Shown: in pieces, positions 7,859 to 16,145 of the stretch
How the letters are laid out: every line of letters starts with the position of its first letter
Position numbering within the stretch: position 1 is the first letter of the stretch
Assembly (NCBI GenBank): GCA_048940645.1
Contig: JBHLOI010000055.1
Coordinates: forward strand, 1 to 23,093
DNA: 23,093 bases
DNA from: Promethearchaeota archaeon
GTDB taxonomy: Archaea > Asgardarchaeota > Lokiarchaeia > Sigyniarchaeales > SOKP01
Reading direction: 5' to 3'
The notes under the pieces: generated by a model
Databases searched by the model: none
Told to the model about the DNA's origin: nothing
What the model saw: the letters and a program-made list of their open reading frames with translations, nothing else
Made by a program: the position numbers and the translations under genes

Positions 7859-9361
7859 TTATTCTTTTTGTGTTTCTAATATAATTGGTTTACATTTTTT
7901 TCTTTTGGAGAGCGCTATCCTCTCAAGAAGACCTTGTCCCGGTTTAACTTCTTTCAAATCTTGGCATTCAATCAAACCAGCATCAATCGCTCCTTTAAAA
8001 ATTTCTTCTCCCTCTTTTGAACGTGTTATTACAGAAGAATAACCACCTTGTGAGCCAATGGAACCTACTGAAATATCTGCATAGTCTGAGGTGAGATCCT
8101 CACAATAATGACAGTTATCTCGTGCATATGATTGAACTTCTTTCAAATCAACTGCCATTTCTTCACCCGATTTTAAATTAATTATGAATTTACCCTTATC
8201 TATATTCATCTTTGTTAATTCATTTATATCTTGGTTAAATTTATCCTTCGTCAATTTTATGATATTCGCATAAGAAAAGGATTCCATACAGAACAAGCCA
8301 ATTTTATATTTAATATTTTTGAAGAAGGGGAGTCCACTTGGAAATAAGGCTCCCTTTTCAATAGCTTTCATCATACAAGGAACACCTACGACTGCAATCT
8401 TATTATATTTCTTTGCTTGATCTATAATTTTTAATGAGGGGGCATTGGCATATTTTGTACCCCCTGTTTTGTATAAATCCTTTACGTTATCTATAATAAT
8501 TGGTTCTGGTCTCCATAAATCGCTTGAATGTTGCACTGCTATTATCGCATCTACTAGTTTATTCTCTAATAAATATTCTAATAAAGATGTTACAATGCCT
8601 CCATCTTGACGCACTTTCTTAATTTCATCTTTAGTTGTTGTTCCTGTATATGCATTAATATAACCTCCTATTTTTTCGGAATAAGTTAGTGATTTATCTA
8701 GTTTTTTAATACTTTGATATGCTTGATCGATAGAAAAGGAGCGAGGACATACTGTAAAACATAAACCACATTTCATACAAATCTTATCATCAATTTCAAG
8801 TTTATCTGCTGTTACTTCTATTGCATTAACTGGGCATACAGAAGAACACCACCCACAATAACAACAGACTCCTGAATCGAATACTATTGAAACTGGTTCA
8901 AAATAATGTTCAATAAAATCATGTGGCACCTCTTTTACTTGATATCTATAGAAATATTCCTTTTCTTCGACTTCTTTTTCTTCCCCCTTTACTTTTTTTA
9001 TTACTTTTTTTGTTTTAATTTCAACTTGTTCTTCAACATATCCTTGCTCCTTTAAATAAATAACGTCTCGGATTACATTATCAGCTGGAAAAGTTTTAAT
9101 AATTTTAGCAATTTCCTCTAAAAATAATGATTTTTTACCTCTTAGTTGATCTAAGACTAATTTGCGTTCAGTTTCTGCATCGATCATAGTATCTAGAATT
9201 TCATAGAATTCTTGCTCAGAATATTTCCCAGTTTTTAAAACTTCTTCTTTTGCTTCAAAAAATGATCTTACTTGGAAATTTTCAGAAGCTTTGTATGTTG
9301 CTTCTAATAATTGCTTAGGAGAAATTCCACTGAACAATTCATTATTTACTATTTGAACCAT
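7859..9361 (-). CDS. FrhB-family protein with ~155-aa N-terminal helical/winged-helix-like extension
   Basis: CCYCGWCSSVCP, CMKCGLCFTVCP, QDGGIVT, GTKY, VGVPC, IGLFCMESF and CHYCEDLTSDYADISVGSIGS. Confidence 0.9.
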   Translation of the reverse strand: MVQIVNNELFSGISPKQLLEATYKASENFQVRSFFEAKEEVLKTGKYSEQEFYEILDTMIDAETERKLVLDQLRGKKSLFLEEIAKIIKTFPADNVIRDVIYLKEQGYVEEQVEIKTKKVIKKVKGEEKEVEEKEYFYRYQVKEVPHDFIEHYFEPVSIVFDSGVCCYCGWCSSVCPVNAIEVTADKLEIDDKICMKCGLCFTVCPRSFSIDQAYQSIKKLDKSLTYSEKIGGYINAYTGTTTKDEIKKVRQDGGIVTSLLEYLLENKLVDAIIAVQHSSDLWRPEPIIIDNVKDLYKTGGTKYANAPSLKIIDQAKKYNKIAVVGVPCMMKAIEKGALFPSGLPFFKNIKYKIGLFCMESFSYANIIKLTKDKFNQDINELTKMNIDKGKFIINLKSGEEMAVDLKEVQSYARDNCHYCEDLTSDYADISVGSIGSQGGYSSVITRSKEGEEIFKGAIDAGLIECQDLKEVKPGQGLLERIALSKRKKCKPIILETQKE

Positions 9362-9930: not shown

Positions 9931-11871
9931 TTAACCTCCTTCTAATAACCCTTCTATTTCAGCATATAATTGATAATCACGGTAATATCGAATATCAATT
10001 GCTTGTGTAGGACAACATGTTGCACATATGCCGCATCCATCACAGTTTATTTCATCAACAACAGCGCCTTCCTCATCGACTATTTTAATAGCCTTCTTAG
10101 GACATTCTTTTTCACATCTTCTGCATGAGATACAATATTCATCATCTACTTCAGCAGTAATAAGCTCAATATCTATTTCTCCTGGTGATGTTAACTCAGC
10201 AACCTTACTTGCTGCTGCTCTTGCCTGAGATACAGAATAGGCAATATCTTTAGGTCCTTGAGCAAAACCCGCAATAAAAATACCTTTCGTTTTAGTTTCT
10301 TGCGGCATTAAACCAAAGTGAGATTCTGTTAAAAATCCATTTCTGTCAGTATCCAAATTTAAAACTTTTGAAATCTGTTTTGTACCTTCAGAAGGTAATG
10401 CTGCAGTAGATAAAACAACTAAATCAGCATCTATTTTAATGATTTCATCAGTTAAAGATGAGTAAACTCTGATTTTAATATCTTTACTTTCTGGGTCTTC
10501 TGTAATTTCACCAACTTTACCCCGAATCATCTTAATATCAGAATCTTTAGCGCGTTGATAATATTCTTCGAAACCCTTTTCATTAGTTCTGATATCAATA
10601 TAACATATTGTAATATTAGCGTCTGGAAATTCTTCTTTAAGCAATTTTCCATTCTTTAATGCTAACATACAACAAACCCCGCTACAATACGGTCGTTCTG
10701 AATCTCTACTTCCGACACATTGTATGAAAACGATTTCTTTTGGTTTCTTATTGTCTGATAGACGTCTTACATGTCCCTCTAAAGGTCCATTTGGGGCTAG
10801 CATTCTTTCTAATTGGGCTTGAGTTATTACGTTTTCGAATTCACCATAACCATATTCACCAAAAGGTTCATAAATATCCCACCCAGTTGCTATGATTATC
10901 GTACCAACTTTAAATTTTACCTCTTTGGGTACTTGACTGAAATCTATAGCATCTAATTCACAAGCTTCTATACAGCTAAAACATTCAACGCATGAATCCC
11001 TGTGTACATCATACAAGAATGGTACGGCTTGACCGAATGCAATATCAATGGCCTTACGTGCTCCCAAATATTCATCAAAATAGTTGGAAGTATACACCGG
11101 ACAAACTTCAGCACAAGCTCCACATCCATTGCAATTTTCAGTTATATACCTTGGTTTCATCTCAACTGTTATATCATAATTACCAACATACCCAGAAACC
11201 TCTTTTACTTCACTAAAACTTAGAATCTCTATGTTTTCATTTCGATTGACATCTAGCATTTTAGGACCGCAAATTCATATAGCACAGTCATCAGTGGGAA
11301 AAGTCCGGTCTAATTGTGCCATTCTACCTCCGATGGTTGTTTTAATATCTACAAGATAAACTTTAATACCTTCATTAGCAAGATCTAAAGCAGCATTCAT
11401 CCCTGCTATTCCTCCACCTACTATCAGTGTAGCTTTTTCAACAGGAACCGTTTTAATTGGTACCACTTCAAGTTGTTTTACTCGCTCAATCCCACTTTTT
11501 ACTAAAATTTTAGCTTTTTCTAAAGCTTCATCATTTTTTTCTGTACACCAAGAACAATGTTCTCTAACATTAACCATCTGAAAATAATATGGATTTAAAT
11601 CGGTTTTGGCGATTGAACCTCTATAAATCGGTTCGTGAGTACGAGGAGTTCAAGCAGAAGCTACAATACGATTTAATTTCTTCTCTTTGATGTCTTCAAT
11701 AATCTCGTTTTGGCCGCTTTCTGTTCATAGGAAGCTGTGCTGTTTCGAGACAATGACGCCATTGAGTTTTTTAGCAAATTCTACTAGCTTATTACAATCA
11801 ACTTTACCACGAATATTAATGCCTCATTGACAAGCATAGTATCCAATCCGATGCATATCAGATTCTTCCAT
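9931..11871 (-). CDS. hdrA: Selenoprotein HdrA, 646 aa, Sec at residues 16, 49, 74 and 199
   Basis: One frame from ATG 11871 through four TGA (11824-11826, 11725-11727, 11650-11652, 11275-11277) joins the 100-aa and 442-aa ORF fragments. Contexts ACQ-U-GINI, SFL-U-TESGQ, ASA-U-TPRTHE and DDCAI-U-ICGPKM match ICHCGINI, LYSCSSDSQ, VASCTPRTHE and NDCSLCILAPKM in the paralogue. Confidence 0.94.
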
Positions 11872-11947
11872 CTTTTTTACACATCCACCTCTAATTTGAC
11901 AATTTTGTATAGCTTTTTTCCTAAAAATTTTTTTACTTAATAATAAT

Positions 11948-11984
11948 CAATTTCCGATATTGAGAATTTATTTATCGGGAATTG
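11948..11984. promoter_or_regulatory. Inverted repeat upstream of the hdr operon (candidate operator or hairpin)
   Basis: CAATTTCCGATA-N13-TATCGGGAATTG, 11 of 12 positions complementary. TTTCCGATAT recurs at 12043-12052. Confidence 0.5.
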
Positions 11985-12258
11985 GCCTTTTTTTATTCTT
12001 TTTTTAACTTTTATGTTATTTACACTTTAAATAATTTGTTACTTTCCGATATAATAAAATTCTGAAAATTTAATTACTATTATAGGTATTGTTTTCCCAT
12101 TTCGAAAATTCTACTTTTATTTAATTGAGGAATTTAATAATCAATTACTATTTTTGTAAAAATAAAATTTATATTTATATTCGACATGAATGTATAATAA
12201 TAGAGAATCAATATTGTTTCACTTGAAATTAAAGAATTAATTATAAATAATAAATAAA

Positions 12259-12939
12259 GTGATTTTTTTGACTATAAGCTTTTATTATTTCCAATATCTT
12301 AATTATTTTGCACTTGTTTACACAACAATTCCATCAATAATTACAGCCATCTTTATGGTAATTTTAAATATTTTCATATTGATTTCCAGTAAGACTTTAC
12401 GTGAAGATATTCAAAGGACACGTCTTTTAAAGAGTGCTGCGATTATAAACATTATTTTTAGCATCTTACCATTAACACTTCCATCATTCGCATTCTCATC
12501 TCTAACCGAAATAGAGAAAATAATTGTAGTTGGTTATTTAGTATTTCTTGGATTGGCTGGATCCTTACCATTTTTTATAACATATGGACTCTTCTTTTTC
12601 CTTTTCGGTAAGGCTAACCAAGAAGAGTATGGTAGTTTTCTAAAAATTGGTGGGATTCTCTGGATGGTGTCTTTTGGATTTTCTTTACTAACTCTAAGTG
12701 GATTAATAGACAGTATCATATACATCTTAATTGGGGCTCCACCAACCTTTGTAATAACTTATTGGACTAGATTGCTTTTTATTATTATTGAATTAAATGG
12801 TTTTGTGTTACTACTAATCCATAGTATTAAAAATAAGAATAAGAATCTAATGATAGCCGGTATATTAAGATTTGTTGCTTTTATTACAGTATTCTTATAT
12901 CCACTTTTCGCTAACTACATTTATGATTTATTCCTCTAA
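12259..12939 (+). CDS. Hypothetical multi-pass membrane protein
   Basis: 226-aa ORF with about 6-7 hydrophobic segments and no recognised motif. Confidence 0.7.
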   Translation: MIFLTISFYYFQYLNYFALVYTTIPSIITAIFMVILNIFILISSKTLREDIQRTRLLKSAAIINIIFSILPLTLPSFAFSSLTEIEKIIVVGYLVFLGLAGSLPFFITYGLFFFLFGKANQEEYGSFLKIGGILWMVSFGFSLLTLSGLIDSIIYILIGAPPTFVITYWTRLLFIIIELNGFVLLLIHSIKNKNKNLMIAGILRFVAFITVFLYPLFANYIYDLFL

Positions 12940-12974
12940 ATTCTTTTTCCTTTAATTTACTTGTACTTAAATGA

Positions 12975-13199
12975 TTATGATTTGATATTCTTACTTTCAG
13001 AGATTAATTGTCTTTCAAGAATCATGTTTTCTTGTAGTTCTTTAAGAAGATTTTCTAATTTTCTAATTTTATCTTCAAGTGTATCAATTTTTTTAAAATT
13101 GTTCGAAATTATCTTCCTTATTAATTTATTTTCCGAGACCGTAAATGCACCTATCTTCTTTTTAAAGAACTTAAATCTGCGGTAAGCGTATTCAATCAT
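12975..13199 (-). CDS. Small basic/coiled-coil protein duplicating the C-terminal tail of the SDR at 15027..16145
   Basis: ATG start and intact frame. 44 of 46 aa are identical to the SDR tail, with 12 synonymous codon differences. Confidence 0.62.
   Translation of the reverse strand: MIEYAYRRFKFFKKKIGAFTVSENKLIRKIISNNFKKIDTLEDKIRKLENLLKELQENMILERQLISESKNIKS
13053..13190 (-). repeat. 138-nt imperfect direct repeat, copy 1 (partner 15072..15209)
   Basis: Ungapped manual alignment with 15 mismatches in 138 nt. Confidence 0.93.
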
Positions 13200-13286
13200 A
13201 AATTTTTGATAAATTTGTAAAAATTTAAATTAAATATGATTTTTATATATCTGTAAATTCAAATATCATAAACGAAAATATTTCGT

Positions 13287-14342
13287 ATGAAAACCAATCT
13301 AGATGAAACCGATTTAAATAATATTCGCTCCTTTTCTCTATCTTTAGGAAAACTTCTTAGGCAGATAGGTGGGTATACAATATTTCAATTTATTGCTTCA
13401 GTAATTCTAGTTTTTATATCTGTGGGGATGCTATTTTCCGGAGTCACTGAGACATCTCTCTCAGCGATAATCAATATATTTCAAAATACTATATGGACTA
13501 TCCTGATTGCTTCAATAGTACTTGAGGTTATCTCATACATATTTATCATTAGACTTATTAAATTATCAAGGAGTGCGGAAAAAAAAAGAATCCCATTTAA
13601 AGATAAATATCGTAAGAGTGCTCTTTTTTTCGTAATTGGAATTATAGTTGGGATTATATTACTCATTGTGGCAATTTTTTTAACGAACTGGATGTTGCAA
13701 CTAATTCAGGAAATATTAAATGATCCTTCATTTGAAATAGAGGATTTAGAACAAATCCCTTCAACTGATATCATTTCGACCCTTGTGCAGGTAGGACGTA
13801 TAGCCTTATCTTTAGCAGGTTTCTATTACTTAAAACAAAACTTTAAACAATTAAGTATTTATATGCAAAATGATGAAAGAGTCCATAAGGGACTTCAATT
13901 CCTTGTCACTGGTTATTCCCTCTTAATTCTGGGTTATCTTATTGAAATAATTGTGGCTTTGGCTAGTTTCTTAGCACTAGCTGGTTTGATTATAACCATA
14001 GTAGGATATTTCAGAGCATCAGATGGATTAAAAAATACGGTATGGAGTTTTCCCTATGAAAGGGATCACTTTCATCCAAGAAAAAGGATCATTTTAGAAA
14101 AAAAAACACAAAAAAATTATATCCAAATATGTGAAGATTTGCTCTATAAATATCTAAAAGAAAACCAACAAGCGTTTAATGTGAGAGCTTTAGAGAATAG
14201 ATTAGATGATATAATTACCAATCATGATGAAAAAGAATTCTGTCAGAAAAATCTACAAGAAATTTTAAACAAAATGAAGGCAAATAAAAGAATCCAATTT
14301 AGTTTACGTAACGGTGAATATTTTTACTTTTTTCCTCGTTAA
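13287..14342 (+). CDS. Membrane protein (~6 TM) with small soluble C-terminal winged-helix-like domain
   Basis: Hydrophobic segments over residues ~30-245. The tail LLYKYLKENQQAFNVRALENRL..LQEILNKMKANKRIQFSLRNGEYFYF has a three-helix plus beta-hairpin pattern (fold is inferred). Confidence 0.7.
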   Translation: MKTNLDETDLNNIRSFSLSLGKLLRQIGGYTIFQFIASVILVFISVGMLFSGVTETSLSAIINIFQNTIWTILIASIVLEVISYIFIIRLIKLSRSAEKKRIPFKDKYRKSALFFVIGIIVGIILLIVAIFLTNWMLQLIQEILNDPSFEIEDLEQIPSTDIISTLVQVGRIALSLAGFYYLKQNFKQLSIYMQNDERVHKGLQFLVTGYSLLILGYLIEIIVALASFLALAGLIITIVGYFRASDGLKNTVWSFPYERDHFHPRKRIILEKKTQKNYIQICEDLLYKYLKENQQAFNVRALENRLDDIITNHDEKEFCQKNLQEILNKMKANKRIQFSLRNGEYFYFFPR

Positions 14343-14535
14343 ATATGGAAATCCTCTTACAAGGAACAAAACAGCAGCTTATAGATGCTTTAAATCGATC
14401 GATTTGTATCTGTTCTATCTGCACAAAGGATTACAAATTTTTGATAACTTTGTAAAAACTTATATTAAATATAATTGTAACTTAACTTACTTTTAAATCC
14501 AAATGTTAGAAATTAAACTAAAAGAGGTGTATTTT

Positions 14536-14841
14536 ATGATTTTTATGGTAACAAATTGGTATCCATTTCATAAAGAAAATGAGGTAGCCAAAATACAACA
14601 AAAAGTGCCTCAACAATTTCCACCTTACATTAAAAAATGGCAACTTTTTGGAACAGCTGACGGAAGAAAGGGTCTTAAAGGTTATGGTATTGTATACACA
14701 GATCCCGAAAAAGTGGATGAGGCAGGAAGATACATAGCAAAAGTAATGAGTTTATTTAATGAGGTTGAAGGTTATACTTGGAAAGTAGAACCGTTAATGA
14801 GTATGGGAGATATTCGAAAATTAGAATCTCTGAAGCTGTAA
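14536..14841 (+). CDS. Small conserved-looking hypothetical protein (alpha/beta)
   Basis: The ORF track starts at 14503, but GAGGTG at 14524-14529 lies 6 nt before in-frame ATG 14536 (MIFMVTNWYP..). Confidence 0.75.
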   Translation: MIFMVTNWYPFHKENEVAKIQQKVPQQFPPYIKKWQLFGTADGRKGLKGYGIVYTDPEKVDEAGRYIAKVMSLFNEVEGYTWKVEPLMSMGDIRKLESLKL

Positions 14842-14850: not shown

Positions 14851-15026
14851 CTGAAACAAATTATTTAAAATCTTAAATTTCATTTTTTATTTTTTTCGAA
14901 GGAATTTTCATTGAAAGCAGACGCTGAATTTACCTCTCTAACCCAATATTAAAGGAAATTTAAATGTTCAAATCTTCTATATTTGAAGATCTTGCTCATG
15001 ATATTTTTTTCGGTATCAAAACTAAG

Positions 15027-16145
15027 TTATTGAGCAGATGTGATTTTCCCTTGAAGTTCTTCCACAAGGAGTTCTAATTTTCTAATCTTATCTTCAAGTG
15101 TATCAATTTTTTTAAAATTATTTGAAATAATTTTTCTTATTAATTTATTTTCCGAAACTGTAAAGGCACCAACTTTCTTTTTAAAGAACCTAAATCTACG
15201 ATAAGCGTATGATTGTTTCAAGAGATTTAAACGAATGGCCCACTTTGCTAAAGGCATAAAGTATCTCTTGGATCCTACTTTTTTCCTTACTTCATTATAA
15301 TAATCATTAAGAGTGTGTCTTTGGTAAGTTAAGAGTTGCTGAGACTTTTTAGTATCCATAAAACCACAATGAAAATCCTTGAGTTCGAACGCATTCTCAG
15401 GTAAAAAGTTCCTACCTAACCCAAAAATCTCCATCATATTGTTAATGTACTCTTTATAGGTAGTTCTACATTGTTCTCCTCCAGCAATAAGAAAAGTTTT
15501 GCCCCATACCTCTTTACATTCGATTGCATTTACCAATGCATACCCCACATCTTTTGTATCACAAATCTCAATGCAAGTATCTAATGGCATATGAAACATT
15601 AAAGGATCCATTTTCAATTTGTTGATCGAAGTGATATAAGTTAAACGAAAGATTGAAAATTTTACTCCCGATTCTCGGATTAATTTTTCTGCTCTAATTT
15701 TTGAAATCGCATAAAAATCTCCTCTACTTGGTTTTATTGGATCACTAACCTTAATCAAAGGATTTTCTCGACGATCTCCGTATACTGCTATTGATGATGT
15801 AAAAATTAATTTTGGCTTATTTTTTTGCTTTTTTATGGCATTAATTATATTTAATGTCCCTCCAATATTGACTGCTTCAGCTAAGCCAGGATTGGTGTCT
15901 GCTAATGGAGGAATAATGGCGGCTAAATGAATAATTATATCATATCCTTCAATAGCTCTTTCTACATCACTATAGTTTCTGATATCTCCCCAAATAATCT
16001 CAATTTTACTTTTATATTTTTTAGCAATCTTTTTATTATTTTTATTATATATTTCGAAAACTCTTATCTGATGTTTTCTTTTTAATAACTCGTTTATCGT
16101 ACTCAACCCTACATTTCCAAAAGCTCCTGTTACCAATACTTTCAA
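15027..16145 (-). CDS. NAD-dependent epimerase/dehydratase (extended SDR) with C-terminal basic/coiled-coil extension
   Basis: VLVTGAFGNVG, IIHLAA, VNIGGT, TSSIAVYG and YAISK (YxxxK). TTG start with GGAGG 8 nt upstream. Confidence 0.92.
   Translation of the reverse strand: MKVLVTGAFGNVGLSTINELLKRKHQIRVFEIYNKNNKKIAKKYKSKIEIIWGDIRNYSDVERAIEGYDIIIHLAAIIPPLADTNPGLAEAVNIGGTLNIINAIKKQKNKPKLIFTSSIAVYGDRRENPLIKVSDPIKPSRGDFYAISKIRAEKLIRESGVKFSIFRLTYITSINKLKMDPLMFHMPLDTCIEICDTKDVGYALVNAIECKEVWGKTFLIAGGEQCRTTYKEYINNMMEIFGLGRNFLPENAFELKDFHCGFMDTKKSQQLLTYQRHTLNDYYNEVRKKVGSKRYFMPLAKWAIRLNLLKQSYAYRRFRFFKKKVGAFTVSENKLIRKIISNNFKKIDTLEDKIRKLELLVEELQGKITSAQ
15072..15209 (-). repeat. 138-nt imperfect direct repeat, copy 2 (3' end of the SDR gene)
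   Basis: Partner of 13053..13190. Confidence 0.93.

Follow-up and report, generated by a model that had tools for sequence, protein, structure and literature searches.

Why does a small open reading frame in a Promethearchaeota genome repeat, almost residue for residue, the C-terminal tail of an SDR enzyme encoded nearby, and does its signature of purifying selection mean that it works as a protein in its own right? The small ORF, here called T′ (12975–13199, minus strand, 74 aa), lies in a 23,093-nt stretch of DNA that was analysed as a whole and that we call the window; the tail now attached to the SDR gene is called T. An initial annotation read T′ as a possible microProtein-type regulator or a reusable targeting module, or alternatively as a truncated relic of a full SDR paralogue. 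We concluded, with a probability of roughly 0.84, that T′ is an orphan fragment composed of the native last ~60 SDR codons and their 3′ flank, left behind by one-sided homologous recombination together with an illegitimate join.

Every sequence used was a MAG or a metagenome assembly. The window's own genome, G000, comprises 3.83 Mb in 126 contigs and is 89.6% complete. It was compared with 41 other genomes of the genus (42 in all) and with metagenome contigs or loci, including L130, L131 and the Logan contig L119 (SRR10836661). A further contig, L127, carries the SDR P0004 and comes from GCA_048940105.1, a MAG of a sister lineage. Close homologues bear the database names of Promethearchaeota or Lokiarchaeota MAGs. 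For T′ versus T (56 codons), dS and dN were obtained by the Nei-Gojobori method, and protein relatives of the tail were sought in a database of 5.8 billion proteins.

The SDR gene (15027–16145, minus strand) encodes 372 aa. Its product is an NAD-dependent epimerase/3-beta-HSD-type Rossmann protein (Pfam PF01073, PF01370). AF2 modelling with 38 homologues gave a confident Rossmann core (pLDDT >90), and in the monomer the tail formed helices at residues 294–311, 313–326 and 330–371 with low to moderate confidence (pLDDT 40–78). The tail comprises ~60 residues, with a basic/aromatic stretch, a strongly conserved GAFT(V/I)SENKLIRK motif and then heptad-like sequence; for T (window 15027–15212) the prediction gives an amphipathic helix of basic character, followed by the motif and by a helix ~40 residues long. 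Such a tail might serve in membrane anchoring or in oligomerisation.

The tail extension is specific to the genus. It was present on the SDR orthologue in 30 of the 41 other genus genomes, where it always ends a frame of 373–419 aa except in the relic of G056, and orthologues from other families of the order stop at about residue 315–330 without it. Both SDR and tail are absent from 11 of the 42 genus genomes. A tblastn search with the small ORF found only two copies of the tail in the genome of the window. Because the tail is restricted to this one SDR orthologue group and occurs just twice in G000, the proposal of a reusable targeting module was abandoned.

T′ and T include a direct repeat of 168 nt (13024–13191 and 15043–15210; repeat family D1) that is ungapped and 85% identical; the left copy consists of native tail sequence. 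Codon by codon, the recount reproduced the figures of the initial annotation: codons 4–49 of the small ORF differ from SDR codons 313–358 by 12 synonymous-only differences and two replacements (K/R and I/V), with no indels. The core is thus 96% identical in protein sequence (44 of 46 residues). Also as first described, T′ starts with its own ATG three codons before the homology and ends in a different C-terminus. The homology to the SDR sets in abruptly at codon 4, and the C-termini of T′ and T part after ...KIRKLE, with weak similarity persisting 3′ of the SDR stop. Over 56 codons, T′ and T differ by 17 synonymous and 9 non-synonymous changes (dS 0.92, dN 0.07). This pattern lies far beyond chance and reflects common ancestry under constraint, though it does not say when the constraint applied. 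The only Pfam hit to T′ was a sub-threshold coiled-coil match (BLOC1_2, 17.5 bits against a cut-off of 33.4), and Rfam gave no match anywhere in the window.

Comparison with relatives showed which of the two tails is at home. The gene order hth226–SDR–(m226)–HdrA is shared by 29 same-genus genomes and by L130, and in all of them one full-length, tail-bearing SDR occupies the position held here by T′; full-length genes at this place, which the initial annotation had named, together with a lack of expression, as telling against its reading, are therefore a fact of the locus. The DUF973 gene, p112 and the R repeat, which make up much of the insert described below, were found at the SDR locus in none of these 29 genomes nor in L130. 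The order in the window is m226–T′–D5′–DUF973–D5–p112–R–SDR, with a 2,019-bp insertion, seen in G000 alone, parting T′ from the SDR body.

The membrane-protein gene m226 (12259–12939, plus strand) natively borders the SDR gene on its 3′ side, in convergent orientation, and directly follows the SDR in G019, G045, G047, L130, G018, G010 and G020. A single blastn alignment joined window positions 11501–13191 to positions 8726–6948 of L130, running from the HdrA upstream region through m226 up to the first base of T′ homology. Both repeat copies map to one 168-nt stretch of L130 (6948–7115), so that the same 168 nt match T as well. T′ and its 3′ flank are colinear with the tails, flank, m226 and HdrA of G019, G045, G047 and L130, and in a three-way alignment they tracked the G019 tail and 3′ UTR closely, whereas T diverged past ...KIRKLE. 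It follows from this colinearity in tail, flank and synteny that T′ (corresponding to about SDR codons 313–372) is the native tail in its native place, displaced from its gene. In the neighbouring HdrA gene (window 9931–11871), an in-frame TGA after DDCAI would fit selenocysteine, and the G056 orthologue has three more in-frame TGA codons in its N-terminal part.

These data also bear on the third suggestion, that T′ is what remains of a second full-length SDR paralogue that once stood beside the first. A truncated copy with ortholog-like divergence would indeed look like T′. However, all relatives have one SDR at the locus, T′ sits in the tail position of that very gene with its own 3′ flank, no tandem tail-bearing SDR genes were found at the locus among the 42 genus genomes, and the other SDR paralogue of G000 (on contig C54, 48% identical) has no tail. 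We gave this origin next to no probability. In offering a truncated relic as its alternative, the initial annotation came close; the paralogue did not hold up, and T′ is instead the original end of the one SDR gene, from which it was displaced.

If T′ is native, the tail now on the SDR should be the stranger, and divergence along the gene bore this out. The native 5′ part of the SDR (codons 1 to ~269; 15339–16145, minus strand), which contains the PF01073 and PF01370 matches, is closest to G019, G045 and G047. Relative to these three genomes, dS was 0.23–0.37 for the SDR body and 0.36–0.40 for T′, similar to the body, versus 0.65–0.93 for T. With the gene divided at the border of the imported segment, dS was 0.21–0.37 for the 5′ part and 0.47–0.65 for the 3′ segment as a whole. 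That segment (codons ~270–372, T, the stop and ~22 nt of 3′ flank; 15005–15338, minus strand) is nearly identical to L127. Between G000 and L127, dS fell 15-fold, from 0.489 in codons 2–269 to 0.033 in codons 270–372. At the nucleotide level 13% of positions differed in codons 1–269, compared with 6 of 309 in codons 270–372 (Fisher test, p = 9e-10). No differences were found in codons 308–365, and identity ran on for 22 nt beyond the stop.

Differences private to G000 numbered 0–4 per 60 nt and then 5–14 from about codon 301 on. The ratio of 3′ to 5′ dS against G019 was 3.1 in G000 and 1.4 in L127, which marks G000, rather than L127, as the recombinant. Tails of the T type (...KLELLVEELQGKIT...) occur on the SDRs of several other metagenomic species (P0004, P0005, P0006, P0008 and P0010), and P0004, on L127, is the closest. 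In L127 other genes lie downstream of the SDR, and the contigs of P0005 and P0008 end no more than 140 nt past the SDR stop; the donor arrangement SDR–R–p112–DUF973 was seen in no sampled genome, a point against the explanation given below. From the divergences we concluded that the SDR now ends in foreign, recently acquired sequence.

The insert holds two passenger genes. The first (13287–14342, plus strand) encodes a 351-aa membrane protein of the DUF973 family (Pfam PF06157, E = 2.3e-7), and its nearest homologues, 50–59% identical, lie elsewhere in G024 and G020. The second, p112 (14503–14841, plus strand; 112 aa), belongs to a multi-copy family in the genus and to no Pfam family. The start of p112 is more likely the ATG at 14536, which is preceded by AGGTG and near which the orthologues in G054 and G012 begin. 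A promoter-like, BRE/TATA-like element, D5′ (13195–13252, plus strand), stands upstream of the DUF973 gene and is 81% identical to its repeat copy D5 (14430–14487, plus strand) upstream of p112. A BRE/TATA-like motif of ~45 nt, AAATTTTTGATAAATTTGTAAAAACTTATATTAAATA, recurs ahead of three genes, namely the DUF973 gene, p112 and one on contig C104. Elements of the D5 type were also found upstream of p112 in G054 and G012, and at C104:54764–54810 in the same genome as the window.

The p112 cassette (14429–14792) is 95% identical in DNA to G054:C205:2746–3108 (L079) and 88% identical to a copy in G012:C20, and both of these copies sit in unrelated, housekeeping contexts. The species with the 95%-identical cassette (G054) has an SDR that is only 70% identical in protein sequence, a contrast which suggests that this small-gene cassette spread horizontally, and recently, among members of the genus. 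Base composition was uninformative on the origin of the insert, because insert and flanks alike have a GC content of 29–31% throughout.

The imported SDR 3′ end is bordered on the insert side by R (14885–14960, plus strand), a dispersed intergenic repeat with 14 copies in G000 (≤4 mismatches) and none in a reversed-genome control. Its core, TTCATTGAAATCAGACTCTGAATTTACC, contains three short palindromes, and it has no Rfam match. Copies are found on C88 (five, at 78.9–86.2 kb), C92, C5, C7, C30, C55 and C68, placed 70–250 nt upstream of unrelated genes. R directly precedes the D5 and p112 cassette in G012, and L127 carries part of the repeat after its SDR stop. The repeat may mark where cassettes end or serve as a common regulatory element.

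The two edges of the imported DNA differ in kind. On the SDR side, divergence steps down at about codons 265–270 (near 15338), as at a homologous crossover. On the other side (13191|13195), native codon 313 meets the D5′ element with homology of no more than a few bases. Alignments place the end of SDR homology and the start of D5′-derived sequence in 13192–13199 (minus strand), an illegitimate junction from which the new ATG and the two following codons of T′ derive. Because the ATG lies in D5′-derived sequence, the start codon of T′ is an accident of the joint. The sequence ATCAT at the junction (ATGAT on the minus strand) is also present in the D5 element copy of G054.

Direct repeats flanking a 2-kb insert are what a site-specific integrative element would leave if its attP mimicked the SDR 3′ end, the two tails then being attL and attR and the element-borne copy restoring the target gene; the dispersed R and D5 repeats likewise suggest mobile cassettes. 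Pfam, however, detected no integrase or recombinase domain in the insert ORFs, assigning the 351-aa ORF to DUF973 alone and giving no hit to p112. Identity between the repeats is just 85%, their longest run of identical bases is 32 nt and does not lie at the borders, and the right junction shows no shared core. Moreover, the imported DNA reaches ~43 codons upstream of the repeat, so that the left crossover was not inside it. Integration of this kind is accordingly very unlikely. We also considered a tandem duplication of a D5–p112–tail unit, as T′ abuts D5′, but such a duplication would explain neither the foreign origin of the attached tail nor the DUF973 gene that separates the D5 copies, and we rejected it.

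A mosaic gene in a MAG might also be an assembly chimera, in which reads of two co-occurring Promethearchaeota populations were mixed at the conserved tail. G000 and the MAG of L127 belong to the same MAG series, and contigs of sibling MAGs break 7 nt from the junction. Yet the junction between D5′ and T′ does not fall at sequence common to the genomes, and k-mer sharing therefore cannot create it. The 2-kb middle piece is absent from L127, and a second MAG (GCA_048938325.1) reproduces both junctions identically within the whole 6.2-kb arrangement. Given that the right junction falls outside shared sequence and that both joints recur in a second assembly, we regarded a chimera as most improbable. 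The sibling contigs concerned, L117 and L118 (GCA_048940185.1 and GCA_048941225.1), end at window position 13184; a repeat may have broken the assembly there, or the population may contain both alleles that carry the insertion and alleles that lack it.

We infer the following course of events. DNA of a related lineage, one resembling the MAG that carries L127 and P0004, would have recombined into the locus. On one side, a homologous crossover would have taken place within the SDR body at about codons 265–270, and the resident gene would therefore end in the donor's 3′ end and tail. On the other side, ~2 kb of non-homologous donor DNA, made up of the R repeat, p112, the DUF973 gene and the two promoter-like D5 elements, would have become attached to codon 313 of the resident gene by an illegitimate join. 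Resident codons ~270–312 would have been lost, and codon 313 to the end left as a stump beside m226. By chance, the end of D5′ would have supplied an in-frame ATG. The ancestral TAA stop is CAA in T′, which lengthens the frame by 11 codons; with the in-frame ATG from D5′ and the mutated old stop, a 74-codon ORF reads through.

The selection signature can be explained in the same terms. The 12:2 pattern is best taken as divergence accumulated before the transfer, between the functional full-length SDR tails of two lineages, and T′ and T would have belonged to such SDRs for essentially all of their divergence (dS ~0.9). From the dS of 0.033 to L127, only ~3 substitutions are expected in T′ since the transfer if it is neutral, a number that gives no power to detect either decay or constraint. 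In the conserved core, the changes private to T′ were five synonymous and no non-synonymous ones, with one further replacement at a variable position, and this load is the ordinary terminal-branch load of the G000 lineage elsewhere in the gene. T′ codons 49–61 stood apart, with five private replacements in addition to the stop loss, at sites where four native relatives are identical. These private changes are a small excess over what the short time since the transfer would lead one to expect, and we counted them against our explanation; they would reflect either changes that the lineage had already acquired or a process other than plain decay.

The reading with most bearing on function is that T′ is a working microProtein, expressed, maybe leaderless from a bidirectional AT-rich D5′ promoter, and modulating the SDR; its long helix would pair with the SDR tail or compete for the tail's partner or membrane site. 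The ORF is intact and has an ATG, its core (YRRFKFFKKK-GAFTVSENKLIRK...) shows no change in protein sequence, and the corresponding SDR tail is predicted to form a basic helix followed by the ~40-residue helix. A TATA-like sequence lies ~25–35 nt upstream, making expression possible. An identical T′ ORF was found in about three (3–4) sibling MAGs of the same population; one of these has the same 6.2-kb arrangement, and two have the contigs ending 7 nt from the junction. A second organism, represented by L119, also has an ATG-started ORF consisting of the tail only.

However, T′ is not kept across species as a separate gene. An intact stand-alone tail ORF was present in none of the 41 other genus genomes, and the search of 5.8 billion proteins recovered stand-alone tails from the same population and from one deletion allele only. 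Thus the hunt for separate copies in relatives, proposed in the initial annotation, turned up no conserved gene and just two remnants, in G056 and L119. G056 (L113 8298–8525, on G056:C46) has lost the SDR body along with the 5′ portion of hth226; what it keeps of the tail begins at about codon 305 and lies in an open frame of 82 codons that offers no ATG, GTG or TTG ahead of the conserved core. In L119 (163–427), the tail starts at the native Met297, with the breakpoint at about codon 294, and comparison with the 94%-identical full-length locus L131 revealed a clean deletion of nt 925–1868. The L119 tail differs from its full-length relative by dS 0.33 and dN 0.05, values not usable for or against function because the history that they record may predate the deletion. 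Both tails are plain leftovers of independent SDR deletions and not members of a conserved small gene family.

Other observations weaken the microProtein reading further. The selection signature is fully accounted for by pre-transfer divergence, the ATG of T′ is a junction accident, no Shine-Dalgarno-like AGGTG of the kind preceding p112 stands before it, and 11 of the 42 genus genomes do without tail and SDR altogether. We therefore considered a functional microProtein unlikely, and T′ probably lacks a function. The regulator proposed at the outset is unsupported, on two grounds: no relative keeps an intact stand-alone gene, and the synonymous-rich divergence arose before the two tails shared a genome. 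If the microProtein reading were true, T′ would be a newborn archaeal microProtein at its moment of origin, its ATG and TATA-rich region furnished by the insertion, and the remnants in G056 and L119 would hint at an autonomous tail module.

The three separate rearrangements (G000, G056 and L119) have breakpoints that all fall within ~20 codons upstream of the tail. This clustering is weak evidence, because there are three cases and they were found by searching with the tail, and we counted it against our preferred explanation as something that it does not account for.

The locus carries a general caution: a small ORF that copies its neighbour at low dN/dS can be an orphan fragment with an inherited selection signature, and changes need to be polarised with relatives before a microprotein is called. 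It also documents recent between-species transfer inside a genus of Promethearchaeota (Lokiarchaeia), by one homologous and one illegitimate crossover, of two passenger genes bounded by dispersed repeats. To specialists this will be no surprise, and the locus serves as a concrete, datable example of Asgard genomes gaining cassettes.

Several known systems resemble the locus in part. Integrated elements produce partial gene duplications, attL and attR, at tRNA or protein-gene targets. Here too the inserted DNA is bordered by a duplicate of a gene's 3′ end while the gene targeted stays whole; unlike such cases, the locus has no integrase and no identical core, and its imported DNA extends beyond the repeat. 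MicroProteins (miPs) are small single-domain proteins related to a larger protein (PMC6003976, PMC5381583, PMC9638782). T′ shares with them its homology to a helix that may mediate interaction in a larger protein, here the product of a nearby gene, but differs in that it is not conserved as a separate gene and originated at an accidental junction.

Closer parallels come from recombination. Homology-facilitated illegitimate recombination (de Vries & Wackernagel 2002; Meier & Wackernagel 2003, as cited in PMC5361080) is described as an experimental finding in transformable bacteria and E. coli conjugation (PMC5361080, PMC3240628). In our case it is deduced from sequence alone, and in an archaeon. 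The likeness lies in one homologous anchor (the SDR to about codon 270), one homology-free joint (13191|13195) and foreign DNA that ends up inserted beside the anchor.

In C-terminal displacement at rhs, cdiA and T6SS loci, a homologous 3′ end that arrives together with extra genes is recombined onto the conserved 5′ part of a resident gene, and the resident 3′ end is pushed downstream, where it persists as a promoter-less or truncated orphan (PMC2935791, PMC5361080). The present gene encodes an SDR, with no toxin or immunity domains and with tails that are conserved and not polymorphic; its passenger genes encode a DUF973 membrane protein and the small p112, and the host is an Asgard archaeon. 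As in those systems, the 3′ end of the SDR is foreign relative to its 5′ part, and the resident T′ is kept in its original flank with the DUF973 gene and p112 in between. We infer that homology-facilitated illegitimate recombination, or C-terminal displacement, produced this arrangement, and T′ would then be an ordinary orphan 3′ gene fragment of recent recombination between lineages.
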